NCBI RefSeq assembly: GCF_964204645.1
Contig: NC_134028.1
Coordinates: forward strand, 3,596,001 to 3,660,000
Origin: Tubulanus polymorphus
Lineage: Eukaryota; Animalia; Nemertea
DNA: 64,000 nt
Direction: 5' to 3'
The notes under the pieces were generated by a model. The model was not told where the DNA came from, made no database searches, and was given only the letters and a program-made list of their open reading frames with translations. Both the position numbers and the translations under genes were made by a program. Below are positions 1,367 to 64,000 of the stretch, in pieces (position 1 is the first letter of the stretch; every line of letters begins with the position of its first letter).

Positions 1367-4300
1367 CGTACGGACCGCGCTCCGAAAGATCGTAACATCG
1401 CCGAAGTCGATCCGATAGCTTTCGCAGCGATGCTCACCGAACGTCTGGAGAAGGTGCTCAAAGAACAGGCCAGTATCGAGAAGATACGACGACTTATCGT
1501 CGAGGTAAATATTCATATCTGTTGTTTATCACTTTGGTCCATGCCGGAGCAGGGTCAAATATGCACTAAACAACTCTTAGTCTTTCTATCAATCGATGTT
1601 TGTTGCTAGATCTTAACCTTTGAAATTCAATATTTGGAACTGAAAATACTAGAATAACCATTTCTACTGATCTCGGGCACTCGGATCATTTCAGACCGAG
1701 TTCAGCCGTTTTTGATGAAAAATTTCCGGGTTTCACAATCGAAAATTTGACCCGAAGGTGAAACTGTCGGATCTGGGTGCGGCGCTTTTTTTTTAGCGCT
1801 GATTTCTTCGAAAAACTCGTTTACGGGTTATCGCCGTTTTAGACGCTTTTAACATTCTCGTTCGTGCCTTGTTGATCATCGTTGCCGCCATCGCTTTGAT
1901 GATCAAAACACGTGTTCGTACAAAAAAGAGGGGAAAAAATCCGGCGTACGCGCGATATATAAATGCCCATTTGAACTACGGAAGAACACACGGATGGAAG
2001 AAAGAACGAATCGTTTGCGTAAGCTTTTTCAGGATCAGGCTAAAAAGGGGGTTGGGGGGTACGCACTAGACGTAAAAGGCTTTATCCGTGGATCAAAGTT
2101 GTCTAGTATCGGATAAAGGTCGGTTAATACACCGCGTTCGCGTTTGATGGAAACGTAAAGCCCCGACGCTAGTATACGCGGTTAATGCGCGACGGCTTTC
2201 GATGCGACCGTCAAAGTGAAAAGTTTCCGCGTTCGCCGCGAGTGACGACGATTGATACCGCGTATCGGACGAACGAGCGTTTCGCGGAAACGCTCGTTTA
2301 TTGTCACCGCGACAAGAAAGGATTTTTTCATTGTTGTCTGATGTGAAAATAAGTTTGCCTATAAATAAAAAGATCTATAGGATAAACCCTCGTATGAGTG
2401 TCGAGTGCAAATTGAGTACTCTACGTTCATACACTAGGTGTCACTAGTGAATCCACCAGGTGTCACTAGTGGATGCATGCCACTTGTGGGCATTTCAACA
2501 ATTGTGCTGGACATCATTTCTCAAATCCAATGAATGGCCAATCTCAGTATACATGAACCTTTAGGAGTAATCTGAGTAATGATTAGTCTAATGTTTTATG
2601 TAGGCTGCTTAAAATCTAGAAAATTTAGTGAAAATTAACAAAACTTTGTGGGATATCTGGTACTGGTACAGCACGCCATCTAGTGAGAAAGTTGAGCTCG
2701 AGGAACATGGTTTTTTTCTCGTGGTGATTAATGGTTCCGTCATCTTCCGTTGTCACTGTTTTATCCGCTATTAGTCGTCGATCTTCATCAAATTTACCGT
2801 TTGATGCGCCGGGCGTCGGTTTCAACCGACGTCAACTTGAGACGACGACAACGCTTGATGAAGAGTCCTGACTCGATGACGTCTTTGAGAGTCTTTTATG
2901 AAGTTTCTTCTAAAGACGCTGTTAGTTAACCCGAGCCGGCGACGTCGCGTGACTCTTTGAAGCGGCGATTTTCTTTGTTTTAGAGAGAAAGAGAGAGAGA
3001 GATGACGGCCGACTGACGGACGAACGGACGACGCGCGGTCGCTATGCTATTTGAAGTGCGCTGGAGCTCGCTTTATGACCTCGCGGACAGCTCCCATGGG
3101 CCGCTGCGGAGAGACATCACACGCCGCAACATGTCACAGACGCTTAGAGGCTGGTGGTAATCCGTCAGATCCAGCCAGCACAAAGCACCTCAAAGAATTC
3201 ACAGCCTGTTAATACCGGCATTCTTGTGTCACTTCGTCCTTCTCAAACTGCGCACGGTTATTGATGATAGCAATCATTAAGTAATGTCCAGTTTTCTGGT
3301 CTCCGTCATAAGATCCGCCGTCATTTAGATATTAACCATATCAGATGTTAAAAGGAATATGTGAATATTGTGATAGGGCTTCACATCGCGTTCCGGTTTT
3401 CCTGTCAGATGACACCGTATACATATCAGAAGTACTCGGTCAAAGGTAGTTCATTTTGAAAGAAGTTCGATCTCAGTTTTTCGTCTTCCAATCCAAAAGT
3501 TAGACAAATCGTGCGTCTAAATAAACTCGAATGTGGCACGATTTTCAAATATTGTTTATTTAAGAAATAATCATTAGATTTTAATGGAATTAAGCCGATG
3601 AATTCAGCATTGATATCGTACCGTACACTAGTGAACCTGTGGCGGATTCCCGTTGAATTTTACTCGCCGGGAAGTAGGATTATCGGTACCCCAGTTTGCC
3701 GTATTATAGCGGCTAGATGTATGAAAAGCCAAATGCAGTTGCTGTAGACCCCTTAATGGGCTAGTTTCATTTTGTCTAGTTTTCACTTCACCGCGACCGT
3801 TGTGTGTCAAAGTTTGCGATTAATTCGCGGTTGTTTCTTATCTTTAAAAGCAAAAAAAAAAGATGAGAATGTGTCACTTTGATTCCGTTGTGCCCTCCCC
3901 CTGTGCGCTGATATTTAAGCGATTATCGCGTTTGATGCATTGTTGCCTCGTGAAGCGCACGATCGCGTTGTCAATGGCGACGATTGTCAAAGGGCGTCAA
4001 AGCGATAAGACCGCGTTCGCTCGTTCGTTCGGCGCTTTTATTTCGAGGCGCGAAAGCTCGAAATCGTTCGCTTTGAACGCGATAAAAATGATGGCTCGAC
4101 TCGACTGGGGGTCGGTCCGTTCAGAACGGTGCTGATCGGACCGACATCAAACAATTCAATGCGATGAACTGAGATAAAACGAAGCAGCGTTCGGGTGTCG
4201 TCTCTCAGCGGCTCGTCTCTTTTGAAATTTTAAAAAACCATAATTTTCTGGCTCTTTATAGAATTCTTACTCTTAAATTAAATGAAATGAATTGAAGCGC

Positions 4301-7300
4301 TAAATTTATTCTCTCTCGATTTCGGGGAAGCTTTTCAATTTCCGTTTGAAGTTTTCGGCAAGTTCTACAACATCAACAGTTCGAAGAGAGTGTTTAGATT
4401 TCCACATAATTAGTGTCAACAATAATCATAAGCTCGAATTCAAATGAACATATTTCATAGAATGGCAATATTTCAAACTTCTTCTTATCAGGGGCTAGTT
4501 CGATAAACATGGTTTAGACTTAGACTAGTCTTGGACCAAATAGTTTTATAGCCAATCTAGCAACAGCCAACCTTACAACAATAAGAGTTCTAAAGCTTCA
4601 AAGATCGTAAGATGTAAGACTTCAGTGTTCAGGGTCTGGTTACTGAGGAGGATGATATAGTCTGAAATGCTGATCGTGATTTTAAATGTATTAGCTTGGT
4701 GCGAGTTGACTGATTCAGTCAACGCATCATGAAATAATAACAGTTATCAATAGGCATTGAAGTTTTTACCCTTCAGATGTTTGGTTGGCGTGTGTATCGT
4801 CGATATTGATCCGAAACATCGATAAATGAATGACGTACTCTAAGAATATATACTGAATTCACCGTATCGATTCATAGTCATTCACTTTGATGATTTTCCT
4901 TTGTCGTTCAAAGTGACAAATTCAATGAAACGGAAACAAACTTCAATCGAGTATTCGTCGTCGATAATCATCGCGATGTTCCATCCCTTTTTCCGCGTCG
5001 GAAAATCGAAAAATTGCATATTTATAATATTCGAAATTGGATATCTAATAGTTATTTGTCGTCGTATTTTTCAGCCGGATACTTCAGCATCGATGGACGA
5101 AACGAAGTCATCGATAACACCTTATAACAAATCAGCCGCGTCGGCGACGCTGACCAGTTTAATGGCGGCGGCCGAGAAAGATCGCGAAGACAACGCGCAA
5201 AGTATTCTAGAGGAGCACGTGTCCCGTATCTGGGATTGTTCGAACGGACAGACGCCCAGTCGGTCGCCGGGCAAACACTCGCCTAAATCGAAATCGCCCG
5301 AACGGGCGTACCGAAAACTGTTAACGCCCGGATATATGGCGGGCGTTCCGAAGCCCGGATATCACGCGTCGTCGTCGTCTAAACGTAAGGATAAAGACTA
5401 CATTTCGTTGCATTCGTACGACAGCGGTGTCAGCGAACCTAGCGGTGCAATATACGACATAGCCGAACCTACGACTCATTACAAACACATACACCATCAT
5501 CACCATCATCACCACGCCGTTAGAGACGTTATCAAATCATCGAAACAACTCTACGAGGTCGACGCTGCGCAACAATGCGGCATTTCGTGTTGCGTCGACG
5601 ATGCCGGTAACGCTAATTTACGGACGTGTCCGCCGGACTCGCTGTCGATACCCGGGTATCGCGATCGTAGTCGCGAGTCGGGTAAACGTGTCGGATCGAG
5701 TAAGAAGGTTTCGGACTCTAGTAGTAATGTTTACGACAGCGGAGTGAGCGTCGCGTACGACAGGTCTCCGCCGTTACCAGTGCCAAATATGCTGAACCCG
5801 AACAATGAAAAGTAAGTATCGGTACTAAATCGTAAGTCTTCAGTTTGTTTTCTTCCAGAAAATTACAGCCTTGCATGAACCAGTGAATGAGTGTATTTTC
5901 CCCCAGAAGATTACAGTCTCATTTGAACCTGAGATCCGAATCGTTTCTCTATCGGGTCGCTCGGGGATCCTATCTCTATATGGGTGGCTCCGGGTGCACT
6001 TCGTTTTGGCCATCGTCCGATTTAACCCTGGCCTTAACTTGCTTGAGTAATTTATTGAATGATCCCTCAAGGCGCGCCCCTGACAAAGTTCTGGAATGGT
6101 GGCGATTAGTTGAACCCCGATGGATGTTGTAGTGCTTCGGTGACTGCGGCGGGTTAAGGATTCATGTATAAGATTGATAATTACGCGTATCGCACGTTTG
6201 CATTTCATAAAACATCATTATCAAGTTTAAGATACGTGTGAAGAGTTGAATTGTTTCCTCAGCGACTAATTGATTCTCGCTAACGGGCATTAATCGCGTG
6301 TCAAGAGTGAAACAGCGATCAACGGGCAGCTCAGTATCGGCAATCGTTTAACCACTTGAGATAATAAAATCTCGACGAGGACTCTCGAGTCACTCGACAA
6401 TGAGCCGATTGAGGAATACCGGGCCCGGCGAGCGATCATTCAGCTGATTACCTGCTGCTGCTAGTGCGCTGTATGTTAACGAACTAATGCTCGATGGTTC
6501 GTCTCAACAGTGTCGCTTTCGGCCAGCAATTACCGCAAATATTGTGATTTCGTTTGTCGGCTCGGCGGCCTTCCACTAATTAGCGGCGGCGCGTGCGCGG
6601 CAGAACGGTGCGACTGAGCGCGCCCGGACTCGCTCGTTCGACACCCACGGGCGTACGACGCCTCGCGTAAGCCGTCGCCGAGTAAATTTCGTTTGAAATT
6701 AGGCGAAATGAGCCGATACAAAGTGGCTGCATTCGCGTTGATTCGCTAGATTTATTTGTCTGATAATATAGATCAAAGGCGCGTTAAAAATGGTGCTGAT
6801 TCGCTGAGTGGTTCGTTGCGGTCTCTAGTTATAAGGCGTGATTTGTGTTGTGTTGTTGCTGATGGCGTCCGTTACTAATTGACTTGAATAGTGTTTAAAG
6901 CACATACGACGGACATAAACAAATTTCCGAATCTGTCGTCGTCGAGCGGTCGGGACATCTCGCTAGATGGCCGAAGGTCCCTCGTTATTCTCGCGTCTAA
7001 TTATGTAGTTTTGCGCGTTGTTTGAAGTCGGCTTTTGAAGTGGAAACGCTATTCGCGGCCACAAATGAGTCATTATGTAAAGTTTACGTCATTTACCCTC
7101 GGCTAGCAGCGTTTTGCGGTGAACTTGGGCGCGAATTAGCCTCGAACTACGTAGCGCATTAGTATCAAAGACTTTAAAACAGTTTCAATACTCGTGACAG
7201 GGTGTGGTGCTGAAAACAAAAGAAAACTCTTTTTTCGAAGCGCGTCGTATTCGTCGTTTGATATCCGTTCGGCTTTGAAAATATTCGCGAAATTCTTACT

Positions 7301-15700: not shown

Positions 15701-16330
15701 TTTTTTTATCAGACCACTGCAACCCGGACACCAATAGTCTATGTCCAAATGATAAGTTGATCACTGATTATCATGAATTCTCATCACCATTTTGTCATTA
15801 ATTATTGACTTCGCGATTATTTTTGTTCCCGCTAATAAAGTTTTAACTGTACAAAGTTACCCGGAATATTTGTGATTTTATTACAAACATAATAAACAGA
15901 CAATCAGAATGTAAAATAGTTCACAATCTTTCTCTTCGATTCAATGAATTTCTGTTTTTACGTGAGGATTTTCAGACTGGAAGAAAGAAAAGGAATCTAC
16001 GAAAACCTTTGCTTAATTCGGACACAAATTTTTAAGGACCACAAAAATGTTGGGGAGATGGATCATATAGCTTTGCAGAGATTGGTATTATATCGAGCTT
16101 ACTATAACGTAGTTCCCTTCCCGCTAGCTTCAGCCGGGACAGGCAACCAAACCTGTCTCCTGATTGACGGGATTGTCGCAGGTCGCAGCAAATCTTGTTG
16201 CAAGTGCCGGGGCAAATGTATATTTGAAATTCCACTTCAACCGCTGTGAAAGCTAAGATTAAGAAAAATAGTAAAATGAGGAAATTGTACAAATTCCGGC
16301 GCCACTAAAATATGCCGAATTACACTGCTT

Positions 16331-16393
16331 AGGTTCGAACCGACCGTCGACATCCCGGAATCAAGGCCGTAATGATACCCAGTGCGCTATAGG
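16331..16393 (-). mobile_element. Degenerate tRNA-derived SINE head
   Basis: Minus strand has an A-box-like TAGCGCACTGG and a B-box GGTTCGAACC at tRNA-like spacing, but no complete cloverleaf. Confidence 0.45.
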
Positions 16394-18755
16394 GATTAGA
16401 GGAGTAGATGGCAGTGACGTGGCGGTTTAGAAGACTTCCGTGACCAGTCAAGCTTGGTGAATGCATTCACTAGACCTTTGATTAACAATTCGTTAGTTCA
16501 TCAAATTCAACCATTCGTATCAGACGGCGACGGTTTAGTTCGATTGGGATTCGTAAAAATTGAATTGCACACTTTGAGGAAGGCGATCATTTTAAAAGAA
16601 CAAAAACAGTTATTAATCTTTGAACCGGTGATATTAAAGATCTGAGAATGATAGCCCGTATCAACTGAATGTAAAAATTAGCATCCAAAGCCAGAAAGAT
16701 GAAAAGTTTTTTCTTAAAGGTTTTCTACAGAGACAAGTGTCTCTGCGACTGGCATTATAAAAGACGTCGGTCTGTGTTTTCCTGCTTTTAAGGAATGATC
16801 AAAGCCAAGCTGGTTTAAGATCATCAATCTTGACTGAAAGCTGCAGTAGTTATGATATTGTTTGATCATATATACCTTACGTTCTAATTCTGAGAGGAGA
16901 GTGCCTGCAACTGCCCATATTCATCCCTTTCATCGAGCAGACTAAAAAGGAATTTTGATACAAAAATAAAGATGAAAGACCTTTAATATAATTAATAGGC
17001 AAATTATTTGAATAATAAAGAGGCTGCGTCTTTCATCGTGAATTGCAGAAATGGATAAAACAAACACCTTTCGCGACATGAAAGGAAAAGTTGTTATAAT
17101 TAATATCCCGAATTAATACCGAAATTTTGGATAAAGAGATTGTTCTAATAAATGAATACTCGATCGAACATGAAAGGGGAACGCGTTTTTGAACTCTTTG
17201 CCTTAAAAGCATCACGCCGCACATCAAAAAGCTCGCGTATACGTTGGAGAAATTTCGTCGGTGCTGATGAGAGATGATATTTATTCAGCCGTGACATCAA
17301 AGACTAAGGAAAGAGTGGTAAATGCGGCATTTCCCGTGGCGAAACACCACTGTGTCAATCCACGCTGACAGGTGGACAAACAAAACCAGATCTTTTATAC
17401 CCGACAATGAAAGCAATTTTTCATCCAATATCACTGTTGTTATAATAATGCTGGCGGTGCAACAGGGGCCTCGCCAATGCACCAGAAACAGGGTCGTCAC
17501 TGCTTCTAGCGTCTTGAGTCACACATCAGACAAACTCCACCGGGCCCTCCGGTCCATAATTACTTGCATTCCTTTTATCCCTAATTCTGAATTGACATTA
17601 AAAGTTTGTATACGAGGCGCATTTTGGGCATTCACCTGCCGGCTCTACAAGCTACATATGCCTTTTATCTAAAAATTATCACATCCCATCACAAAAGATC
17701 AAGTCATTTTCGAGATTTTCCCCAAAGCAGTTTGAACTTCTGCTTAAAACTTTTTCCTAATATAGATGAAGAGTGTGTCTATCTCTTTGATCTGAAGCAG
17801 TAAGCGGCAACAGGATTCCCCGCCTTGCTTAATACTTTTAGCCATGTTAATGATTAGTAATGCAGCAGAATTTATTAGTTCAAAAGACGTTTTAAAGTCT
17901 ATTAAAAGAATGAATGATACATGTATATGTGATGATGTATGCAATCCGTTTGATTATGAAAGCATAAATGATAAGAAAAATCGTATATAATACCAAATGA
18001 AGCACACCCTTTGATCCTTTTGAAATATGATGCCAGAAAATGGGAAAAAATTATGATTCAGCAAAGTAACGTTAAAATAGGCCTCGTAGCAAAATTCTCT
18101 TTATAATGATTGAGGAGTTTTCCATACGAAACAAGTTGTAGCAGATCAAATGATAAACGATTGAAAGTTCCTTTGAAAGATAATCGCTTTGTATACCTCT
18201 GAAGTCATACACCATAATTAATATATGTTGAATATACCAATAGCATCAGCAGAACGCGAGTCTGAGCCTCGGGGGAATGTCAATAATTTTTACCAAACAA
18301 TAGAGAAAAAGAAAAAAACAAGCAGAAAAGTCAATTATGTGTTTCGTTTATTCATCTCGATAAATAAAAGCGATATATTCTTTATTAAAAAACAACAAAG
18401 TCACCTTAAAACAGAAATAACAAACACGTAAAACTAGTATTATCAAGAAATCCTTATACCGTAGACCACCTTATTCTGTCTCTGGTCAACTTGGAAACCA
18501 CTCTGAAAGTTGGCTAATTCTACAAAGATGACAAACTCTCAATTGTAGTAATCATGCTCAACACAGGTCTAGCATTTACCAATGCTAGAAAATAAGGCAG
18601 TCCACTGAATTTGAAAATGCCATAGCTTCATTCCGTTAAATGTTTGCATTGTCTCTTTTCTTCTAAATGCTGATGCCGATGCTTAAGTTTATTGAAAAGC
18701 GTCATACATTCAACAATCATTAAATAATTTAGATTCGTCTAGACATCACTGCATG

Positions 18756-20680
18756 TCATCGCTCTTCATCAGGTGTCTTCTCATTCGAAATGCGTTCCAT
18801 GACGTTCTCAAAGGTGTCACATATTTCACTAGGTTGCCATCTCCTGTCAACATTGGGAACTAAAGGATCAGGAGCAATGACGTCTAAGAGTCTATCGCGC
18901 AGCGGAATAACTAGTCGATAGGCGTGTAACATCATGCGATACGGGGAAACATCTGTCCTATTACTGTACGCATAGTCGCCAACTATAATGTGATTGATAT
19001 ATTGACAGTGAACACGCAGTTGATGCGTTCTACCTAAAATGAGAACATTGAAATTGAGTGTGAATCGAGAATACAATAGCAGCATCCACGGAAATAGCAT
19101 CCAACTTTAAACTGTAACGGAGACAACTTTTTGATGATTGTTTGACTGACTGCGTCAGATTTAGAGGGATAACTGGGGCACGTGGTCCACCTTCAAGCCG
19201 TCTGAACGAACCATTTCAGCGCATTGTGTCTTAAAACATCAAGATACATCTTGTGGGCTTGATTTTCCAAAATTTCCAGACCACCTGTCTGACGCTTGGT
19301 GCTACCTCTAAGTCCACACCTTGATCCATGAGTCGACTGACTGATGCTATTGTCTCAAGAAAATTTACTACGAAAGAGTAGCAATATCTCATGTGACTTA
19401 GTGGTAATAAATGAATTAAATTATTGAGTATGCGTTGTAGATTAAGCTACCTGTTGATGGCATTAGCAAAACTTTAGTGGCATCATCTCCATCATATTGT
19501 CCTCGTTCTAAGACAATGAGGTTTGTTAACGCTGATCGACTGTTCACACATGCTGGATGTGTGGACGGACACATCAATGTTCTGCTTTCTATGTCACTTC
19601 TCTGACCAATATCCGCATTGATAACCATATTATTGTCCTTGCCATTGTCAACATGGCCTCTGACCTGAATGGAATTCAAATTTGCAAATGAATTCAAAAT
19701 AAGGTTCAAGTCAAAAGCAATAAAAGGATTTTTGCTACTTACTAGTGCTAGATAGTACTTTTTTACAAGCCTTCTTTCAAATGCTTTTTGACATTTGGCA
19801 GCACCTTTTCGATGTTTTCCTAAACACAGCACACCAGATGTTGCATAATCAAGTCTATGACAAAATCTGTAATATCAGAAATTAGAAGTCATATCAAAAT
19901 GGCAAAAGGGATATTTCTGCTTGATCTTAGAACCTCTAGTACTGAATATGTTGATGCCAGTAAAAATCATTGTGGTAAGTCATACCTGAAATAATGTGGT
20001 AATGAGTGATCAACAATTTCTGGTCGAAGATGAGCTAATTGGTTGGATACTGTAACTTCTGTTTCTATTTCACCATTCACCTATCATTAAAAAAGGAAAC
20101 ATGCGATGAGAAAAATTGTTAGCCTTGTATTGTTTCTGGAATGAATATTAAGCCATACGGAGAGAGGAATGTCTTACAGTTGTTTCTTTTGGCCAGAGTC
20201 TGAGCTTGATCTCCAGTTAGAAACTGGACTGATGTTCAGGTCATGATTGAATATCTAACACAAGCAGCTCTGGTAAGATTCAAGAATAGGGGACTAGTGG
20301 TTAGGATTAGGGTTAGGATTAGGGTTAGGGTTAGGTTTAGTTCCCTAATCATCATTAATTACTATATACATTACTATCATTATATATCATCATTATCAAT
20401 TACTAATATTATTACTTAATTGATTACTATCACTACATATATATTGCTATAGTCCCCTATTCTTGAATCGCACCGCAGCTCTATTGAAATAGCGTCCAGA
20501 TAAGTGTAAGCCATGCCAACAACAAAATAATACAATATAGTTTAAGTTAGCACGGGCCTACTTGTCCTACTACATATTTCAGCTTACCTTCACATCATAA
20601 CGCTTATTCACAATGATCACATCTTCGTCTTCATGTAAAACTGATATGTCAGTTAGTTTAGCGGGTGTTCCTTGCGCCAT
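18756..20680 (-). CDS. RPUSD1: RluA-family RNA pseudouridylate synthase domain-containing protein 1
   Basis: Five exons (20680-20588, 20080-19986, 19866-19743, ~19664-19451, ~19032-18756). Motifs IIVNK, FCHRLDYATSG (catalytic Asp), KYYLALVRGH, TGRTHQLRVH, IVGDYAY, RMMLHAYRL. Confidence 0.93.
20266..20480. mobile_element. MITE-like element with ~30-bp TIRs enclosing (TTAGGG)-like repeats
   Basis: gattcaagaataggggacta ... tagtcccctattcttgaatc inverted termini; ggttaggattagggttagg array at ~20299-20341; in RPUSD1 intron 1. Confidence 0.8.
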
Positions 20681-21412
20681 GACGCGTCGATGAAAGTATA
20701 TATACCGTAATCTGGCCCAGCGATAAATATTCGTGTAAATTGTTTCAATGATGGGCGCTGACATCTTGTGTATTGCGCAATACCATTTCAATTCAATTCT
20801 TTTATTGGTTTCATTTTAATCGCTTTATTGATGTAGAGCAAGCGTAAAATATATTTCTATCATCTTATCTCCCATCGTCGATCTAACTAAGGTATTTTTG
20901 AAAAAAGATACTGCACAATAGTTGATAGATGTTCCGATAGAAAATAGGGGATAATAAATTATGATTGAATTTAAATCCGGTGAGTCCGCTTACCCGGAAT
21001 TTATCTAACAGAATTCTGGGATATTCTCTAGTATTTTGACATGTACGTTTTTGACCTGTCACAAACATTAAATGTTTGTTTGATGAATTTGCATGAATTG
21101 TAGTGTTGTAAGTATGTAATACGGTTTCCATTATTTAAATCTAACGATAGGATGCCTATACCTCCAGTGAAAAATTAAGAAATTAAATTTAAATAAAAAA
21201 TGCATTCAATTTAATGAAATTCAATGTTCTCTCTACACAAATCCAAATTTTGTTGTTTTTTGGCCTATGACTATAGATTGCATTCTATCAAACTGAAGGA
21301 GGTCGTTCCAAATTCGTTTTTAGTAGGGATTTGGGCTACGCAGGAATAATTTGTTTTTTTAACAGGACAGACATCTCTAAAAAGATGTTCAAGTGATAAA
21401 TCAGCTTTAAAA

Positions 21413-34809
<13,397 letters not shown>

Positions 34810-39300: not shown

Positions 39301-40744
39301 CGACAAACCAGTATTTCAATTCATACCTTGACCGGGGAAATAAAAACATAACAGTAGAATCTGTTTATCCCGAAGTCTTATCCCATAACGAAATACTCAC
39401 CCTCTGGCATAGTGGAAAGTTCATCTTGAATACTGATTATTTGGTTTTGTTGTCGGGTCATGTATCCACATCGGCGCTCCTCATGTCTCAGAGCTATTGC
39501 TAACTGTTTTGCCAATTCTTGATAGCAATGGATGATCGATTGAGTGGCGTTCGCCTAGAAACGAATAATTGAAAGATTTCACTGTTTAGACTGATAGACT
39601 GGTTACCTCTACAAAGCTCAGCTTAACCTATCAGTGCTGACTAATAAAATACCCTGAAGTGCTGGGGATAATTTCGAAATTCCTCCCAGTGTGTTGAATA
39701 ACAGGCAACTGCTATAATGCGTTTACATCATGTATCATTCAGTTAATAATGACAGGTGCTGCCATCTTTTCTATTTCATTAGAGTTAAAAACTGATTACC
39801 GTACATCAATACTACAGCGTAGTGCGGTGTACTAGCACAATCCATCGACGAGTTATACACCGAACCGGTCATTCTTATAACGCCAATCGAAGTCGCGAAA
39901 TACGATACGATTACAAACTTACACGCAAAGCGAAGGCGACATTAAATGAAATCATAGTCGGCAATTCACGTTTGGTCGACGTTTGAGAAGTTGAACCGCT
40001 GTGACTGTGCAGTAAAGACGGAAATCCGACGAAGCGAACTTCGTCAATTTTCATCTCTAACCGTTTGCCGCATAATTCCGATTTTACGGCCAACAAATTC
40101 GCCAGCGTTTTGTCGCAGTACCTTGAAAAGAAATCTCACATGGCCGAAAAAGAAGACAGATTTCGATTTAAAGGCGCGCAATATTTTCGAACAACTTACT
40201 GAACTAGAACTCCTCTTCGAATACAAGAGGGTTGTCGTTTTAAAGCGCTGCAATGAAGAAAATCGAGATTTCATTGAACAGTTCAGCGCAAGTTTGTAAG
40301 AATAATTTTTGGAAAATTTACCAGATGCCTACATCTGATACAAACCTGTACGCTTCAAAATCTTCAGGTATACGACTTGCATAAGGGTTCTTCTGAAGTG
40401 ATGCTAGAAATAAAGCGAAGCGCAGTCTAAGTAACCAGTCTGTGGTATAGTTTCATGATCATGAATCTATTCGCTATCCAATTAAAGCGTGAGGGTGGGC
40501 TTACCTATGAATTGATAATGTCAGTCCTGTGTGACCAACACAACAGGCTTATCCGTTGAAACTTACCCTTTACTTTCACTTCAGAGTCTTGAGGCGGTTC
40601 GGATGGATATCTAAACAGTAACCGGTCTCCTTTACTTCCCGATGAGACTAAAATAATCGCCAGCGGTCGACCTTCGTCGTAGAAATCAGATTCGCTTTCT
40701 TTTTTCTCATCATCATTATCACTGGACAGTTTTTGTGAAGACAT
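36342..40744 (-). CDS. NPRL3: GATOR1 complex subunit NPRL3
   Basis: Multi-exon. N-terminal [96 protein letters not shown]; C-terminal [41 protein letters not shown]. Confidence 0.96.
37143..37414. mobile_element. MITE, CAGGGTGGCCAC TIR family
   Basis: cagggtggccact ... agcggccaccctg. Confidence 0.8.
37689..37794. mobile_element. Short MITE, CAGGGTGGCCAC TIR family
   Basis: Perfect 12-bp TIR cagggtggccac ... gtggccaccctg, flanked by TA-rich sequence. Confidence 0.82.
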
Positions 40745-40896
40745 TTTCTCCTACCACAACAGGATGAAATGCGAGCAGTAGTTTATATCATCATCTCTCT
40801 AAAAAATCCAAAAGTTGCTTGAATTGAAAGACGACAGACCAAATGATTTTTAAAAGACTGATTTTATGCTGTTGTTATTGTAGTAGTAAAATAGTA

Positions 40897-41118
40897 AGTA
40901 GGCCTACTCACAGGGGCTCGTATTTGAAGTTTTGGGGTGAACTGTAGGTTTAGATCATCCAATATCCAACCCAAGGTACTATATAGCATAGCCAGGCCCC
41001 CTATAAAAGAAAAGTACCTTGCCGATATTGGATGATCTAAGCCCAGGCTATGTGTGTGGCACTACACTACAGTTCACCCAGCCAAACTTCACAAATGACT
41101 TGTAGTGAGTTACCTATT
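40897..41118. repeat. Nested inverted repeats upstream of the NPRL3 start codon (MITE-like)
   Basis: Outer tgaagttttggggtgaactgtag / ctacagttcacccagccaaacttca; inner ttagatcatccaatatc / gatattggatgatctaa. Confidence 0.7.
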
Positions 41119-42384
41119 ATCGTTGGTAGAAGGTTTTATAATCGGATGGGCTTATATCATACTGAGGTTTGTGAAAATAGTTCTACGTTCAGTACCTGTG
41201 TATTGGACGACGGTTTTGGTCGGTATTTAAAACCACCGTCTCACGTTATACCCGTCAGGTGCTGCCGCTATGCTCAAGATTAGCGGAATTTTCGAACACT
41301 AAGCATAAACTGACTTTGGCAGTCAACGGTTGGTAATTCTCAAATCCTTTGGCTTTGCTCGGCCTGCGCAAAAACAATTTTCCGGCGTAGTAGATTTTCG
41401 TGTACTTCAAACTTAAAAAATTATTTATGTCAATTTCGGGGAAAACCGCATTATTAGAAATAAAGCTAAAAGAAGTTTTCATCAATAAATGTTTACGTTT
41501 TTATTCTTGATTTCAATAGGACATGCGTATTGTAATAATAATATAAGGCTGCAACTCACCCTGGTAAAACAATAGACCTATACTTGATTCTCATCAGAAG
41601 TTGTGAAAATATGAGTCATTGAAGAGGGACTGTTGTAATATTCTATACCGATGCCGTACGAAATATTCCAAAAGCTCTATTATGATGGTGAAGACTTGTG
41701 TTGGCGTGAATTTTTACCGGCTGATATCGGTCGGTATAGTTTATAAATTATTCTAAAATCTAAGAAAAAAAAAACAGGCGGCGGCTATAAATTAGAAGGG
41801 AGTGCGCTGTTGCATGGGAATCAAGTAATTTATTTTTATGGCCTTATCAAAGCTCCACTATATAGGCCTATTATTGTTCAGCTGGCTGCTGGCGCGTTTT
41901 CAACCCGGCAGTAGAACCTTTTCATTCAACTTCTATAAACTCTCAATGTAAATCCATTCAACAATAGAGACACAATTGCGGCTTTTCAGAGTTGTTGATA
42001 TCATTCATATACGCGCTATTGAATACGTCACCGGCTGACCACGGTGGACACAAGCATAGGCCATTCACCTCTGCACACTCACACTGTGAACATGCTACCG
42101 TGGATTCTCCTCCTGGCGATTTTCGCTGCGCTCCCGCTCCTGCTCCTGTTCCTGCTTCCTGAGGAACGACGTCTTTATGTTTTATGTGTTACTGTTCGTC
42201 TCCGTACTGTCCTGTACTGTTCCGTGTTTGTTAATCCGTTCTATTTTTCAGGGTGTAATCCGTTTTATTTTTCAGGGCCGATTTCTCTGTCGAATTTCAA
42301 CGTTTGCTGGAACAAAACTAATGTCCGAAAGCGTCGGCTCTCCTTCACCGTCACATGTCGAGGATGTCAGACAAAGAGTCGGTC

Positions 42385-43027
42385 AGGAAATGGCTGCCCT
42401 GTACATGCCCTCATGCCGAACACGAAAACCAGGATGACGAGGCCTCACTCTCCCCACGTATCAACAGAGTGTGCTTGGTGACGTCAATGACGGGCAAGTC
42501 AGTCGGATTGCACAGGTTAAAAGTGGAGTGGTAAAGCTGGACTGTCTACTAGTATTCATTGATTCCTTTTCAGGAATTGCTTCGGACAAAGATTTAGTCT
42601 TGTCTTCCTTTGCGTTCTAGCATTCATTGATTCCTTTTAAGGGATTGCTTCGGGCAGGGATTAATTTCCCTGTCTTCCTTTGCGTGCTAGGATTCATTGA
42701 TTCACTGCGGGATCGCTTGCGTGCTAGCATTCATTGATTCCTTTTAAGGGATTGCTTCGGGCAGGGATTAATTTCCCTGTCTTCCTTTGAGTGTTAGTAT
42801 TCATTGATTCCGCGTGGGTTGCTTCGGGCAGGGCTAAGTCTTGTCTTCCTTTGGGTGCTAGTGCGGGCAATCCGGTTGCGCTGCCCTATTTTTGGCTTGG
42901 GTAATTTGATAGGTTTGTCAGTTACTGACGTCACCCAGCACACCCTGTCAGTAAATGGTGAAAGTAAGACGTCGTCATCCTGGTTTTTGCGTTCTGTGTG
43001 AGGGCGTGTAGAGGGCAGCATATTCCT
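42385..43027 (+). repeat. Diverged ~165-bp inverted repeat enclosing five tandem 37-70-bp stem-loop units
   Basis: Left arm 42393-42558 aligns almost gap-free to the reverse complement of 42852-43019. Units start at 42549, 42617, 42687, 42724 and 42794. Confidence 0.92.
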
Positions 43028-43032
43028 TGTGA

Positions 43033-43262
43033 TTAACCTTGTGATATAGATATCCAAAATCTAGATGTTTTGAAATAGGCAGAAAAATAAGTTCAGCTTG
43101 TGATATAGATACCCAAAATCTCGATGTAATAAATTAGGCAGGAAATAAAATTAACCTTGTAATACAGATATCCAAAATCTAGATGTATTGAAATAGGCAG
43201 AAAAAAAATTAATCTTGTAATATAGATATCCAATATCTCGATATTCAAATAGGCAGAGAAAT
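43033..43262 (+). repeat. ~59-bp tandem repeat x4
   Basis: Unit cttgt(g/a)atatagatatccaaaatct(a/c)gatgt..aaataggcag. Confidence 0.92.
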
Positions 43263-43497
43263 TTTTAATTATGTGCTTGGATTTAAAGAAAAAAAATTCT
43301 GTAAACTCGACCGCCGATCACACAACTATATCTGTACTTCGATTTCCGATTTTGAAAAAACTTAACACGGAGAAAACAACCAAAAAAATTAAAATTAGAC
43401 AAAATTATCTACGACCTTGTAAACTTTCGGACTATTTACACTGAAAAAACGACAAAAAATATGTAAAATTAGACGCCCAACTTAGGAGACCCTTGCC

Positions 43498-44545
43498 GAT
43501 AATGAACCCAGCAATCATAAAGGTAACTTAATATATATGGAATTATTGCGATAAATTCTAAATAAGATATTTTGTCATTACAGGATATCTTCTTTTAATC
43601 ATTGCAGCTAAATTTCAACTACAAGAAAAAACCCAGCTTGAGATCAACTACTCGTCATCAAAATCAACCAACTGGAACAGCAAACAGCAGGCCCATTAGA
43701 ATCAAACTCATCAACCAATCATCCATGCAGATAATGAACCAAGCAATCATAAAAGGTAACTTAATATGGATGGCATTATTTCGATTAATTCTAAATGAAA
43801 TCTTTTATCATTGTAAACTTGAAATGTAAGTTGATTTTGTATGGAAATAATTATGATGAATTCTAAATGAAATAATTTGTCATAACAGGATATCTTCTTT
43901 TAATCATTGCAGCTAAATTTCAACTATAAGAAAAACCCAGCTCGAGATCAACTACTCGTCCAAAATCGACCAACTGGAACAGTGCATAGCCAACTAGAAT
44001 CAAACTCATTAACCAACAAACTTAGATGATCCATCCTGATTATGAACCAAGCAATCATAAAAGGTAACTTGATATACATGGAATTATTTCGATTAATTCT
44101 AAATAAAATATTTTGTCATTACTGGATATCTTTGTTTACTCTTCAGCTAAATCCTATCTTTATGAAACTACCCATCTTTAAATCAACTACTCATCAAGAA
44201 TCTACAGATTAGCTCAGCCCATAAAACAATCCAAGCTTGAATTAACGCATTAACGGACTTAGAACATCAACCAATTCATCAACCAACCTACTAATAAGAT
44301 CATCTCTGATAATGAACCCAGCACTCGTGAAAGGTAACTTGATATACATTATTCTAAATTCTAAATGTAATGATTTTTGATACCGGGAAATAATCTTTGA
44401 ATCATTGCAGCTAAGTTTCAACTATAAGAAAAAGTCCAGCTTGAGATCAACTACTCGTCCAAAATCTACAAATTGGAACAGGGCACAGGAGAGGCCAGAA
44501 CTGAAGCCAGCAAACTCAGGTAAGTTGATATACATGGAAATTACC
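43498..44545 (+). repeat. Tandemly duplicated exon-intron units (non-coding)
   Basis: Repeated gataatgaacc.agcaatcataaag|gtaactt ... ttaatcattgcag|ctaaatttcaacta. Confidence 0.88.
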
Positions 44546-47500
44546 GGTATGTAGAAATTTCAGACCTCTATGAATATGATTTAATAAGTGACTATCATCA
44601 AAATCTATTTACTGGTCCACATGGCTGATCTTTTATCTTTAAACTTTTATCTTCGCTAGTGTTAAAAAGTGATGAACTAGTCCTACTACTGCAATCAATT
44701 ATTGGGGTTTAAATCGGCATTTGACGTCAATGAATTTTACTTTGTGAAAAACACGCTGTCTTGTAGTTTGAAATGACATGTAAATCATGTTAAATCTCTC
44801 TGAAATGTTTTGCTTTCTTCACTTTGTTCACTCAGCCAAACTACATCTCGGAAATTATGGTCTGAAGAAGACACTCACAAGTAGATGAATACTGATTGAC
44901 CCATTTGCTGATGAAAACTGCAGAAGCCCAGTTGATAAGTTGAGGAGCCAGCGACGGATTAATCACTCAACGATGGATTCTTCTACAATTGATGTTTGAT
45001 TTCTATAAAACATTTTATCAGGAGCAGCAGAGAAAAAAGTGTATCTTATAAACACTAATGTTAATGGATTATCTTATCAACACTGATTCAGGATAAACAC
45101 TGTTTTAGAAGCAGCAAAGACAATAGTGTATCTTATCAATTGAGGAGCAGCATAAACAATAGTGCATCTTATAAACACTGAGATCCAGCTGGAGCGGCGA
45201 AGACAATAGCAAACTTCTGTAGTAAAGTATTGATTCTTTTTACATGTAACCCTTTTTCGAACCAGTCTGATGGATAATATAGTCTTTTCGAGGAAACTAT
45301 TTTATAATGTGTTATGCAATGTGAGAGTAATAAAAGCTAAGCTCCATTAATTCAAATATTGGTCTTCGATCCTTGGTTGATAGATAAGTCAAGTTAGGTT
45401 AGTCACTAGGGGTAAATGTTGGCGTCGAGAGCCTAGTTTGGACTCGTAGGTCTGTTGAGTTAACACCTAAACTGAGATATAGTTTCAACATGTTATTGTG
45501 AGTTTTATCTTTGTGCTTACCGTAGTTAAGCATAGTCAACAGTGGCTATGCCCCTGTCTGGCTTTGCCCTAGATATCACATAGTTAGGAAACATAGAACA
45601 TAGCGTTAATGATTCAAATGAATGGCCAGTGTTCTATACAAATAAGTATTTGCGGAATTGTAGATGTATTAATTTGATGGCATTTTATGATATTTCTTCA
45701 AAGGCCCATGTAACTCATTTGACAAATGAATCGTATATGTCAATTTTCACATCGAGTTTTAACTTTGAGCCTCCATCAATCTGTTTGATGATCATAGCTT
45801 AGTATTTGAAAACAAAAGCTTCATCTAAAAGGAGACCATTATTTACATTTGAGAGGTAAAGCTAGGAATAACAAGGCATAAAGTTATAGCTAGGACTAAT
45901 TTTTAACGTTTTAACATTGTTTATAGCTGTTTGAACTTCTTTTATTGTAATATGTAAATCCATATCACGAGATGGCTCTCGTGAATAATCTCTTAGCTTC
46001 AAATCGGGTGTATAATGATTATTAAGGAGTGGCAGTGAATCGGTAGCGCTTTTTTAGAATGGGCCCAGAACTTTACAGTGAAAAAATGCCTGCAGTTGTA
46101 AATAGAGGAGTATAAATAATACATAATACAAAATACAAGTACATAAATTAATAAAGAATCAAATAAATAAAATAACCAATAAATAATAAATAGTAAATGA
46201 TACAAAATACAAGCACATAAATAGATAGATGATATAAGAAATAGATAAAAATAATAAACAACAATACAAACAAACAACAAATTAATATTCTATTTACATG
46301 AAAAGGCATTTTTTCAAATATTTACCAACAAGGTTCTTCAATTGAACAACCTTCCCTAAGTATGCAGAAAATCCGAGATCTTTTCTGTTGTTGTTTTAAG
46401 CATTCTATCGGACTGTTGTTGTAATGAACAAAACAAATAACCATAAACCTTAACTAAATCGAACACACTTAAAAAAATAACTGATATGATAGAATGCTTT
46501 GAATAACTGTGATGAAAGATCGACCGTCCTTTTAACGAGCTGCGCTCAATCACTGCTGTGACCGTTGATTGTTATACTGGGGTAGACTTACTATCTAAGA
46601 TCTGGTACAAACATTTTTCTTTTAAGAAAGAATGTAAAACAGCTATAAACGTAAGTTATTGATGTTGTTGATTAGTTACCGATTGTATAATTATGTTGAT
46701 GTTTTCAAAGCTGCCAGAAAAAAGGTCAGAATACTTAGTATTTAATGTCAAGGTGTTTGGACATCAAGACAAGGCAAAGTCGGTAAAATTCTAGTTCTCT
46801 AGTGAAAGTAATGATTAGTTGACACTAAGATTTCTAGAGTGAATCTGTATGTTTTATCTCTAAATTTAATGCTTTATGTTGGAGACTGTTATTGTAAAAC
46901 AGTCTGCATATTTGGAAATCAGGAACTTGCATCATGATTCCTCGAATAAGATATTATTGTTGTGTGAATAAAACGATATACATTTTCATCATTCGTGTTG
47001 AAACTTTCCAGTTTTTAAGTTTTATAGCAACAATTCCACTGTGGTGCTTTTCGGTGTTTCATAAAATACTGATTTAATTAAGGCCTTGTCAAAAATAGCA
47101 GGAGCATAGAATAGAAGGAGCAGTTTCTTTATAGGCTAACTTGAGGATACAGTGCTAGTTTTGATTATCGGTTTAACCGCGTCTTGGGCCTGTAATATCT
47201 GGGCAAGAAGAATTTCTGATTTTTATAGTATTATCAAGTTGAATAATACAATTTTAGTTACTGAATACCGTAGCTTTGTCAGTCAAAACATATTTATATG
47301 AAGATACTTGATTAATCTTAGATTATCACAAAGAAAAACCTTAAAAACCTTAGTAAAATAATGTTAATGAAAATTAAATCAAAGACTGTTTTGTTAATCG
47401 AGTCTGAATTTGTGTTTTTATCTCCGGTTTTAATGTTTTTATGTTGGAGACTTTTTTTGAAGAAATACAGGTCACGTTTTTTGTAAATGACTGCGGCACT

Positions 47501-49021
47501 TCCTTGAGGACATAAATACCGCTGTCATTTAGGTACCGGGTATGATTGTTGTTGTGGGGATAAAACGACATGTTCATGTCGATCGTTCATAAAACACTGA
47601 TTTATTAAGGTCCTATCCAATAAAGTTGAGCTTCAAAAGTTGACATGATAGATTCATATTTCATGAAAAAGTGTCGGTTATGTTGACCTCATGAATCGTC
47701 AAATTCATGATCTTTCAGACTAGTCCCAATTTTCGGTGTTTTATGCATCAAAGTTTACAATTCTTTGTGTATATTTTTTATTTTCCTATTGATGCAAATT
47801 GTATGAATCAGTAGTAGTGGAGATGTATCGTAGATAAAGACTTCAAAATACCTTACATGTAACTTTTGTGGTTTTTAAGTTAGTACAATTTCATACATAG
47901 TAATAGAAATAAATTACTATGGAAATTTGAGAAAATAAGCTAAAAGATAATAATTTGTTATATCGGAAATTAAAATGTAAATCAGATTGATTATTTAATC
48001 CTACGCTTTCCAGAGTATTTGGCCAGGTTTATCTCTGGTTTTAGTGCGGGGGCCATGGACTATAGAGTCCATGGTTGGGCCATAGACTTTTTTGTTTTAG
48101 AATCTATGGTTGTACCATGGGCGTATAAACTCTCGTTTATAGTTTATACGCCTATGGTGGTTGGACTAGTTGTTTTTTGAAAGTCCACGTGTTTGAGGAG
48201 CTTACATTATAATTCCTCGAGCACTCTTGGCATTTTGTATAATTGTTGTATGAGAATAAATATGATTGATTTTGAAATTTGTCATTCCTTAATTAAGTGT
48301 AACTAAAACAAAGCACTACTAAAAACGAAGATTATATGCACTCGAGAAAACCAACCAATTTACGTTTCATATGCGTTTGTTTATATCTTGTATTGCCTAC
48401 ACTCATTGACAGAGGTTGCTGAATACGCAGATAGCGCCCGATGTGTTGATTTCTAATGCTGAGAGCGTAGGTCTTCGTTTTAGTCATGCATATTTCTAAT
48501 ATCGCAAAGTGCATAGGTCTTCGTTTTAGTGGCGCATAGTTTTAGTAACACCCCCGTTTCACTGCCTTCCTATAAAATTCACTGCTTTTCACGGCTGGCC
48601 CGTGAATCATTTATGAACCCTGACAGTTGAATCAGTTGCAGTTTCCTGAAAAACTTTACCACACACGAGGTGCGCTTTTCATATACACGCACAGGTCACA
48701 TTGTAGCGAGTCTTGTGGCGAGCACGTGTGTGAAGCACGGCCGAATATAGTCAAAGCGCATATTCTTCCTAAACAAAATGTAATTCCAATGACAAATTGA
48801 CAAAAAAAGTGAAAGTCCATAATAAGGTTTCAACATCAGCACATTTTTATTTCTGAACAAAACATCTTTCTGACACTATAGAGTGATATGGACAACCTGG
48901 CTTTTGTTTTGACCTAAAGTTTGCCATACTCGGCGAGCTGACTGAGACCTGCTACAACTGGTTGAAGAGATCTTGGTTGCCTCGCGCTCGGGAGAATCAA
49001 CCTTTAAAAATGAAATGTCTC

Positions 49022-50110
49022 TCATCCTTTTTTCTCGCATTTCTTGCGTTCATCTTCATCGATCAAATAAGTCACAAATTCCCGAACAGTTTCGAATTCT
49101 GTGCGACCCTGTGGTTCAGTTTTTCGAGGTAAATTTGGTGTGACTGATTGAACTTTAGCACGGAATTCTTTCATCTGAAAATAAAGAAATTCCATTGTAA
49201 ACATGGATAAAAAGGTGAATTAAAGTAGTTAGTTGCCTTAGCTTTTATAATCAGATGGGCTTGTACCAACGTTGGTGAAAATATCCGATCATGAAACTAA
49301 ACCACGGACAGGTTACTGACAACTCATAGGGTGGAACCTCGAATTTGATCCCAAATTTAAGAATTCTAATAGTTCTTTAGCAGGTACTGGATATAAAAGA
49401 CCATTGGTATTCGCCCCTATAACTAACATATTTTCTGGTCACCGTCTTGTTCCCCTCAGGTTTTTCGTAACAAAGTTCTTCTATATGTCCTAAGATTGAT
49501 CGGTGAACTTCGAAAACTTACATCTTTTGCACCGACTATTTTCCAGATGCAAAATGTAAACAGAGACACACCGGTGACCGCATAAAGAGTACCTCGACCA
49601 AGTGCCCTCAGCGCTAGAGAACTACCACTCTCAACCATTTCTCTATTACCAGAAAATCCCTGCAAAAATACAAATCACATTTGAATGAACTCAACTGGCA
49701 TCACCCAAGAAATCTAAATGAATATTCTGGGACCTGAATATGGTCGAAATAAATGTTGTTTTTCCCAGGATATTGCAAGAATCACCTTCAGGAAATTTGC
49801 AGAATCTTTCTTTTTTGTTAAAGCCAATGTTGTACTAAATCCTAGAAGCAAAGACATGCTCGTTACGCCAGCCAGAAATAATCCACCTGAAAAGACAAAA
49901 TGGATTTGATACAAAAATTACATCGATCGGTTCCTTGCGGTACATATTACGTTGGCAGGTTTCTGAACTTTTAACTTTCAGTTTCTTAAAATACAGTTTA
50001 TCATCAATAACACGACTAACTATTGTAATACCTGTTAGTTTAAATAGTTTATCTGAATTTCCATCGTTTTTTAGAGACGTGTCGACCTTTTTTACGCTGG
50101 AATCAGTCAT
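49022..50110 (-). CDS. TMEM242: Transmembrane protein 242 (mitochondrial ATP synthase c-ring assembly factor)
   Basis: Four exons: MTDSS...KLFKLT / GGLFLAGV...GFSTTLALTKKKD / ESGSSLALRALGRGTLYA...WKIVG / MKEFRAKVQS...*. Confidence 0.92.
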
Positions 50111-54262: not shown

Positions 54263-54813
54263 ATAGGATTTGCTGATATACGGAAACATTTCAAATATTA
54301 TTTCAGGTGAATAGTGATGGATTAAACGCGATGTTTTTCGCCGCCGAAACAAACAGCTTGAGAATGGTGCGAGTTCTATTGCGTTGGGGATTCGATCTCG
54401 ACTCGGTGAAAGATAACACGCGGCTGTACTCGTGCTGTAAGCAGTACGACGACTCGCATCCGCACATGGAATTAAATCCACTCTACGTCGCCATCAGACA
54501 TGACAATTTCAAGATGTTTCTTACGCTCATCTCCGCCCACTACAAAGTGCCATACCATGACCTCGACCTTCTACACGATCTCGTATTCAAGACCGGCTAC
54601 GCGGCAGAGGCTAACGTCAGTCCGCATATACTGGCGATATTTAAGGAAATCTTCGCGAAGACGGCACGTTCACCTATGACCTTACAGCATATCAGCCGCG
54701 GCGTCATCCGCCAGAGCCTCGCTCAGAGACCGCACCTCAAAGTCGATCGATTGCCGATACCAACGAAACTTAAAGAGTATATTCTTATGAAAGATGTTTT
54801 GTGGCCGCGCTGA
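50257..54813 (+). CDS. Ankyrin-repeat and SOCS-box protein (ASB-like Cullin5/ElonginBC adaptor)
   Basis: Short first exon 50257-50281 (MMETSIRE, phase 1) joins 51076. About ten further exons carry ankyrin repeats (GQSALQLA, GSTPLN, GQTPLM, HKTPLIVAA, QTPLHIA). C-terminal SOCS box SPMTLQHISRGVIRQSL...VDRLPIPTKLKEYIL. Confidence 0.9.
51545..51700. mobile_element. MITE-like element, two intronic copies (second at ~52727-52892)
   Basis: ggg(c)tggatttcataga ... tctatgaaaccgggccc termini; shared internal agcaaaatagtccctgg and ccagatttagcagtta. Confidence 0.75.
54180..54258. repeat. (AT)n microsatellite
   Basis: Directly visible in the last intron of the ankyrin/SOCS gene. Confidence 0.95.
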
Positions 54814-63895: not shown

Positions 63896-64000
63896 TAATA
63901 AGATAAAATCCCACTATTTACAGATTAAAAGAATTTAAAAACAAGAATTTATTTATTAAATCTAAAATATTTAAAAGACACGACGTTTCGATCTCACCCT
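63896..64000 (-). mobile_element. Third copy of the hammerhead-bearing Penelope-like pLTR, truncated by the window end
   Basis: Reverse complement reads agggtgagatcgaaacgtcgtgtcttttaaatattttag...gggattttatcttatta, near-identical to 24640-24743. Confidence 0.88.

Follow-up and report, generated by a model that had tools for sequence, protein, structure and literature searches.

A multi-copy fold-back with an RNA-like wobble helix and a branched tandem-module head in the nemertean Tubulanus polymorphus

The fold-back at 42385-43027 of the window (the 64,000-nt stretch of Tubulanus polymorphus DNA analysed here) is real, RNA-like, multi-copy and previously undescribed, while its function is inferred. 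Its RNA-type signature spans about 440 nt (42488-42924) rather than 640. The pairing of the inner stem and of the branched head has probably been selected at the RNA level. The element that carries them is predicted, with somewhat less assurance, to be or to have been transcribed and spliced on the + strand. In our preferred reading, put forward tentatively and at a little under an even chance, the inner 440 nt are a selected RNA domain that serves as a protein-binding scaffold for the repeat's own predicted transcript.

Alignment of the arms (42385-42558 with 43027-42852) gives 174 pairs with a single 2-nt gap. Read as + strand RNA, these comprise 121 Watson-Crick pairs (69.5%), 28 G-U pairs, 12 A-C mismatches and 13 mismatches of the transversion type, and the longest unbroken runs of pairs are 18, 15 and 14. 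The inner left arm (42488-42558) forms a wobble-rich helix with the inner right arm (42852-42924), in which 64 of 71 pairs hold as + strand RNA (41 Watson-Crick, 23 G-U, 3 A-C, 4 other) and G-U pairs make up 23 of the 30 differences. The 103 pairs between the outer left arm (42385-42487) and the outer right arm (42925-43027) carry no RNA-type bias (80 Watson-Crick, or 78%, 5 G-U, 9 A-C, 9 other). The original prediction had described near-gapless arms of about 70% identity over nearly the same extent, with some 23 of about 30 inner differences of the G-U type and about 9 A-C-type mismatches in the outer half; all of this was borne out. The inner 23:3 ratio of G-U to A-C departs from 1:1 (p=9e-5), and the inner and outer mixes differ from each other (Fisher p=0.001; p=0.01 in a change-point permutation that allows for the choice of cut).

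One rival is a neutral relic: a dead repeat that contains an internal inverted duplication plus a minisatellite and mutates with a strand bias (A>G and C>T on the + strand). Transitions make up half of the substitutions at the variant places of DNA run X1 (145 transitions, 145 transversions), which sets the neutral expectation at a 25/25/50 mix of G-U, A-C and transversion-type differences. The outer 5:9:9 mix is compatible with such decay (p=0.29), whereas the inner mix rejects it (23/30 G-U against an expected 25%, p=4e-9). The element is also multi-copy and non-coding, as a relic would be, and a mild skew of the same sign is seen in the unstructured repeats downstream (14 A>G or C>T changes vs 9 G>A or T>C overall; 11 vs 6 in the 300-nt units). 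This skew is too weak to yield 23:3 (p=0.0016 for a mutational skew of 60%); a skew of 75% would suffice (p=0.08). The relic therefore requires a skew of about 75%, together with a deficit of transversions (4/30), confined to the inner arm and loop. Decay of CpG does not account for the inner G-U pairs, because only 4 of the 23 have T before G. We consider a neutral origin of the whole structure improbable. We interpret the outer 100 or so pairs as an inverted duplication or conversion tract that arose at the DNA level and is free of RNA constraint. The proposal of a selected + strand helix finds support in the inner 71 pairs (and, independently, in loop modules that had gone unmentioned) and none in the outer 103. 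An exact 16-bp stretch and the palindrome TGACGTCA, which we take to be CRE-like, are kept in both outer arms (42425-42487 and 42925-42987), and a DNA-level constraint there is possible.

The fold-back had been pictured as a rod; its central 290 nt instead form a branched tandem array. This head (42549-42861, + strand) consists of five tandem modules of 37-70 nt joined at CUAG. Units 1, 2, 4 and 5 start at 42549, 42617, 42724 and 42794 (68, 70, 70 and 64 nt), and unit 3, which starts at 42687, has 37 nt and lacks the second hairpin, P3. A full unit is predicted by the computed fold to be a three-way junction, P1-UU-P2-GCUUC-P3-UCCUU-P1', and the junction words UU and GCUU are identical in all five units. 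The module helices were picked from the + strand fold, with one A of unit 1 counted as a bulge; their 117 positions hold 84 Watson-Crick pairs, 28 G-U pairs, 5 others and not a single A-C. Between units, 15 of 17 variant pair types remain paired on the + strand (10/10 in P2 and P3), where random changes would keep at most 47% paired (expectation 0.34-0.47; p=5e-4), a test that rests on about four independent units since units 2 and 4 are 96% identical. Covariation in P3 takes the form of an A-U/G-U/G-C series at two positions and A-U/C-G/U-G at a third. This carries weight because conversion between the long arms can mimic compensation in the stem, but not inside short hairpins, and the neutral relic leaves both the two-sided P3 changes and the absence of A-C from the modules unexplained. 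Folded alone, units 2 and 4 beat shuffles (z -3.4 and -3.7), and units 1, 3 and 5 do no better than shuffles (z -0.8, -0.5 and -0.9). Judging from the P1 sequences, which are common to the units, nested and local pairing may be alike possible. Two other candidates were set aside: an ENE-type triple helix, as on inspection the junction strands are not mirror images, and an Sm-like site at 42887-42895, where the loose ends of other copies differ.

The same pairs bear on a further alternative raised with the original prediction, namely that A-to-I hyper-editing was fixed by reverse transcription and left as a fossil. Formally, each inner G-U pair can be derived from A-U with the A read as G, and both orientations occur (12 G-T, 11 T-G). 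ADARs avoid a 5' G neighbour, yet one is present at 7 of these 23 Gs, and 15 A-T and 7 T-A pairs persist in the inner arm. The module covariation also disfavours editing: the exchanges G-C vs A-U and C-G vs A-U need T>C changes and transversions. With no retroelement hallmark in addition, an editing fossil is highly improbable.

Folding both strands against shuffles, a check suggested in advance, gave energies that are not similar: -331 kcal/mol on the + strand (z -18) and -233.6 on the - strand (z -12), with 20 shuffles for each strand. The two strands differ by -97 kcal/mol, as against -11.5 +/- 18.6 in 50 window tiles of the same length, the most extreme of which (-69) overlaps the hairpin itself. 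Strand difference tracks G+T content across the tiles (r=-0.8), and the + strand is G+T-rich here (57-68% in 42500-42999), which in itself favours + folding and counts for the neutral relic. G+T content alone predicts about -41 kcal/mol for the hairpin, however, and the observed difference exceeds this by about 56. The 42488-42546 duplex reaches -54.9 kcal/mol on the + strand vs -25.8 on the - strand, whereas for the middle of the outer arm (42443-42487) the - strand gives the lower energy (-59.9 vs -46.4). A cruciform cannot give a one-strand G-T bias because both strands fold in it, and the bias would therefore require a single-stranded form or a mutation skew.

Such a single-stranded form could be DNA, if the host repeat were a non-autonomous rolling-circle (Helitron/Helentron-like) element with the folds acting on the peeled + strand and the modules being repeated 3' ends. 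Helitron 3' ends follow a pattern of a hairpin, a short spacer and a CTAG-type end, and in units 1, 2, 4 and 5 P3 is followed by 11 nt and then CTAG or TTAG; a further hairpin with CTAG lies at 48114-48169. DNA tolerates G-A and G-G mismatches about equally to G-T, but those tolerated in the inner arm are almost all G-T (23 G-T, 3 G-A, 0 G-G), which counts against a DNA signal. The host repeat has several tandem arrays and exon-like debris and no terminal or long direct repeats, and non-autonomous Helentrons are reported to bear tandem arrays in oyster (PMC7492417). Against a rolling circle, no Rep/helicase remnant was detected in 123 frames, and the left edge has only one exact 12-bp inverted match against 45300-49000. 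DNA parameters, moreover, favour the + strand of the inner domain by only 9 kcal/mol, compared with 99 under RNA parameters. We regard rolling-circle transposition as an improbable source of the signal, to the same degree as neutral decay. Since the advantage is 99 vs 9 kcal/mol, the mismatches tolerated there are nearly all G-U and the downstream skew is too weak, the inner stem and head are read as a selected RNA domain.

The fold-back is part of an unclassified host repeat at 41743-46000, whose left end falls within 41480-41850 and whose right end lies beyond 46000 according to the depth profile and joints of run X1. Its left flank (42012-42384, + strand), of higher copy number by X1 depth, contains two acceptor-like sites (42251 and 42275) and a short frame (42321-42437). 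Immediately past the right arm, also on the + strand, a 59-nt unit is repeated four times in tandem (43032-43262; multi-copy), and at 43476-44520 there are tandem units of about 300 nt with exon-like pieces whose frames are broken by stops and shifts. The single-copy baseline of X1 is a depth of 43-45 on four long unique contigs. Summed depth, which is a rough guide to copy number only, amounts to 12,371 in 42012-42345, about 1,900-4,700 in the left arm, 900-1,900 in the covered part of the loop (the cover gap 42556-42603 was left out of the analysis), 15,800-33,600 across the tandem arrays downstream and 2,000-2,900 in 44684-46000 (about 46-67 times single-copy). At 42988-43011 it rises to 15,544 vs about 44 for single-copy sequence, and loose ends and opposite-strand joints occur there too. 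Expressed as multiples of single copy, depth goes up to about 280-350 in the outer arm and left flank and is about 20-50 in the inner arm and loop. The hairpin therefore has tens of genomic copies. It lies 1.6 kb upstream of NPRL3 in divergent orientation, but it is not the unique locus, alignable by NPRL3 synteny, that had been assumed. Because both flanks are multi-copy, the inverted repeat is internal to the host repeat, and no joint bypasses the hairpin among 15 listed of the 69 X1 joints, nor among those of a second stretch with little flank. A high-copy transposon with perfect terminal inverted repeats had been named beforehand as the outcome that would overturn an RNA interpretation; the high copy number is there, but the inverted repeat is not terminal.

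The surroundings contain several other elements. Pfam identifies host genes over 4844-54813, namely Axin (+), an RNA pseudouridine synthase (-), an RCC1-domain gene (+, presumably HERC-like), NPRL3 (-), a DUF1358 gene (-) and an ankyrin-SOCS box gene (+), and the exon at 54277-54810 encodes a sequence with 100% identity to a protein of Tubulanus polymorphus. Another dispersed repeat has pieces at 40900-41179, 49243-49320 and 29010-29120, and its other genomic copies run from 41179 into sequence found near 49284; going by this arrangement, the intervening 8 kb may be an insertion into that repeat or a stretch between two of its copies. At 48040-48185 a stem encloses three adjacent near-perfect hairpins (z of -7.9 for the + strand and -8.6 for the - strand), the last of them followed by CTAG at 48166; they may be the end of the host repeat or of another element. 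Small inverted-repeat elements are present at 48297-48551 (46-bp arms, 80%) and at 46079-46316 (28-bp arms around a strongly A-rich tract). A young MITE at 24538-24743 has 85-bp arms and copies elsewhere in the window (34247-34379 and 63896-64000) that are 95-99% identical.

Transcription and splicing on the + strand are predicted from splice-like signals. The exon-like pieces end in AAG|GTAAC at 43523, 43756, 44064 and 44334 and in CAG|GTAAG at 44520. The donor-like word AGGTAA occurs six times on the + strand and never on the - strand of 41700-46000, with four of the six from one duplicated unit, and the strand of the donor words is the strand that folds. Upstream, a stop and a start overlap in TAATG at 42319; the frame of 38 codons that begins there terminates at 42437, within the left arm. 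This frame and its stop are preserved in the right arm, and the match of one contig family to the arm extends just up to the stop (loose end before 42974). Protein searches found no relative for this frame (42321-42437) and no match for the upstream frame and one exon-like frame, which is weak evidence given such short queries.

None of the 120 frames of at least 32 aa in 41100-49400 reached the Pfam cut-off, and the sole match among 123 frames was the host DUF1358 gene (49459-49674). The frames screened contain no remnant of a reverse transcriptase, transposase, gag/pol or Rep/helicase, and no long terminal direct or inverted repeat of the host repeat was found within the window. In keeping with the earlier statement that the fold-back belongs to no recognised RNA family, Rfam gave no match above gathering score in the 64-kb window; three weak matches to miRNA covariance models (E 1.3-4.8) all lie outside the hairpin. 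Self-cleaving ribozymes were not found either: CUGANGA is absent from both strands of 42300-43100, and no ribozyme family reached E<=10 in 40000-46000. Of nine metagenome motif matches none has BLAST similarity to 41800-45400, viral motif matches numbered zero, and a scan for bacterial promoters and terminators, which is not relevant to this host, returned none. A literature search found no publication on this element.

Arm and module are common to diverged copies of the repeat, as judged from their sequences. A deeper family, seen in a contig of run X3, has 26 differences in 153 left-arm nt, and its left arm runs into the module start (loose end at 42546). Of the 40 variant rows listed out of 56, 35 lie in the arms (the 5 in the loop were excluded). 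Judged against the window's partner or a variant partner, 22 of these 35 listed arm variants end paired and 13 unpaired, figures that are unphased and come from arms that cross-map. The left arms of other copies also map onto the right arm (opposite-strand joints, loose ends at 43021-43027), and the outer part of the right arm draws contigs of higher-copy arm-like sequences. At a loose end before 42903, C at 42898 stands opposite the G that most copies carry at 42514; provided the two bases derive from a single family, an A-U pair would have become G-C there. Of the nine outer A-C mismatches, those at 42950, 42966 and 42969 read as C-G in most of the X1 depth, consistent with recent decay of the window's copy or with cross-mapping. 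Runs X2 and X3 looked exon-shaped, but their depth is unchanged through the last NPRL3 intron and some of their pieces end on GATC (3/12 ends in X2 and 3/14 in X3, compared with 0/8 in X1, where about 0.02 is expected by chance for each end); we therefore take them for DNA of the proximity-ligation type and not for RNA. Run X4 gave no cover, even on NPRL3. Counts of A>G and T>C (6/5 in X2, 8/6 in X3, 6/6 in X1) come from DNA runs and are uninformative on editing.

Copy number and layout bring in one more explanation, an endo-siRNA precursor or 'killer' copy, in which the inverted duplication of a higher-copy repeat is transcribed and diced and silences the other copies. The arrangement, with its long inverted repeat, dispersed copies and predicted spliced transcript, recalls the Drosophila hpRNAs (PMC10317233). 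With the outer arm and left flank so much deeper than the inner arm and loop, hairpin-free targets may exist, and siAGO proteins are kept in nemerteans according to PMC11114477. The same source reports that DICER2 was not found in Nemertea and that gonad small RNAs of Notospermus geniculatus gave no endo-siRNA signature. Each of the longest uninterrupted runs of pairs falls below one siRNA length. Silencing also leaves the conserved junction modules of the loop unexplained, as well as the lack of an RNA signature in the outer arm, the very part that is homologous to the targets. On balance an siRNA precursor, the leading rival, seems unlikely, though less so than the neutral or rolling-circle accounts.

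Under our preferred reading, the selected RNA domain, the wobble-rich helix and five branched modules would be a domain of the repeat's predicted + strand spliced transcript and would provide a multivalent scaffold to the RNA-binding proteins by which the element's own RNA is handled. The repeated junctions with their invariant single-stranded words suggest, in the predicted structure, one protein-binding site present several times over. With no run longer than 18 pairs, the interrupted stem would suit dsRNA-binding proteins above processive dicing. A plausible but tentative mechanism is that the helix binds dsRNA-binding proteins while the junctions supply multiple copies of one predicted site, and that the scaffold serves export, stability or packaging. 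The wobbles and branched cap might keep the helix a poor substrate for dicing, by analogy with what is reported for rncs-1. It is much more doubtful, though conceivable, that the fold-back represents an undescribed nemertean RNA class: a spliced multi-copy ncRNA whose wobble-rich rod bears a variable-length array of a new three-way-junction module, amplified minisatellite-like to tune the number of protein sites, and which possibly feeds or titrates the orphan siAGO/Dicer-1 machinery left in a lineage without Dicer-2.

Structured long RNAs are nearly uncharted in Nemertea. If the repeat is transcribed, its RNA module would be new, and the tens of natural variants that a single genome contains would lend themselves readily to covariation analysis and probing; it would also supply a concrete substrate for the question posed in PMC11114477 of what siAGO does in nemerteans without DICER2. 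If the fold is merely repeat-borne, it would still represent RNA-type selection inside an unclassified mobile element.

Among known systems, C. elegans rncs-1 has a helix of about 300 bp with branches at both ends, and it reportedly inhibits Dicer unless the branches are removed (described in PMC4175353, the inhibition second-hand). By description, both structures have a long central helix that ends in a branched structure. The nemertean helix differs in having 174 pairs, an inner part that is 58% Watson-Crick, a head of tandem modules and tens of copies. Drosophila hpRNAs (hp-CG4068, hp-Nmy/Tmy, hp-ODox2) are described as spliced transcripts with tandem or dispersed copies and arms that are sometimes repeat-derived (PMC10317233). 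They share with the present element a long inverted repeat able to form a duplex (174 pairs here, with a longest run of 18), but they are defined by Dcr-2-dependent siRNAs, which sets them apart from a phylum in which PMC11114477 reports no DICER2. In the present element, furthermore, constraint falls on the interrupted inner stem and the structured loop.

The HIV RRE is a long stem with a branched head. Together with the MPMV CTE, the musD/IAP elements and the MLV PTE it belongs to the multi-stem RNA domains that recruit export proteins (as described in PMC4588558), and a multi-stem RNA domain inside a mobile element is common to these and, as predicted, to the fold-back. The nemertean host repeat, unlike theirs, shows no gag, pol, LTR or other retroelement feature and no Rfam match, and with no direct repeat at its edges and no gag/pol domain it does not place the domain within an LTR element or LINE. 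Cg_HINE and DINE-1 Helentrons are dispersed non-coding repeats with tandem arrays and short palindromes, the former in a lophotrochozoan (PMC7492417), and the host repeat likewise is dispersed, non-coding and rich in tandem arrays. It differs in that no subterminal repeat pair or microsatellite module was identified in it, none of its 120 frames holds a Rep/helicase remnant, and a 174-bp G-U-biased internal inverted repeat is absent from the features given in PMC7492417. MITEs and foldback elements are also multi-copy and non-coding with a long inverted repeat, but here the inverted repeat is internal to a repeat of about 41.8 kb to beyond 46 kb rather than at its ends, and the true MITE of the window (24538-24743) has arms that are 100% complementary. 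Retrozymes, viroid-like and Penelope ribozyme repeats have a self-cleaving core, which is lacking here. In its likely mode of action the fold-back, which qualifies for none of these classes on the features compared, by analogy most resembles rncs-1 or a retroelement transport element, and in its layout it resembles hpRNA loci.
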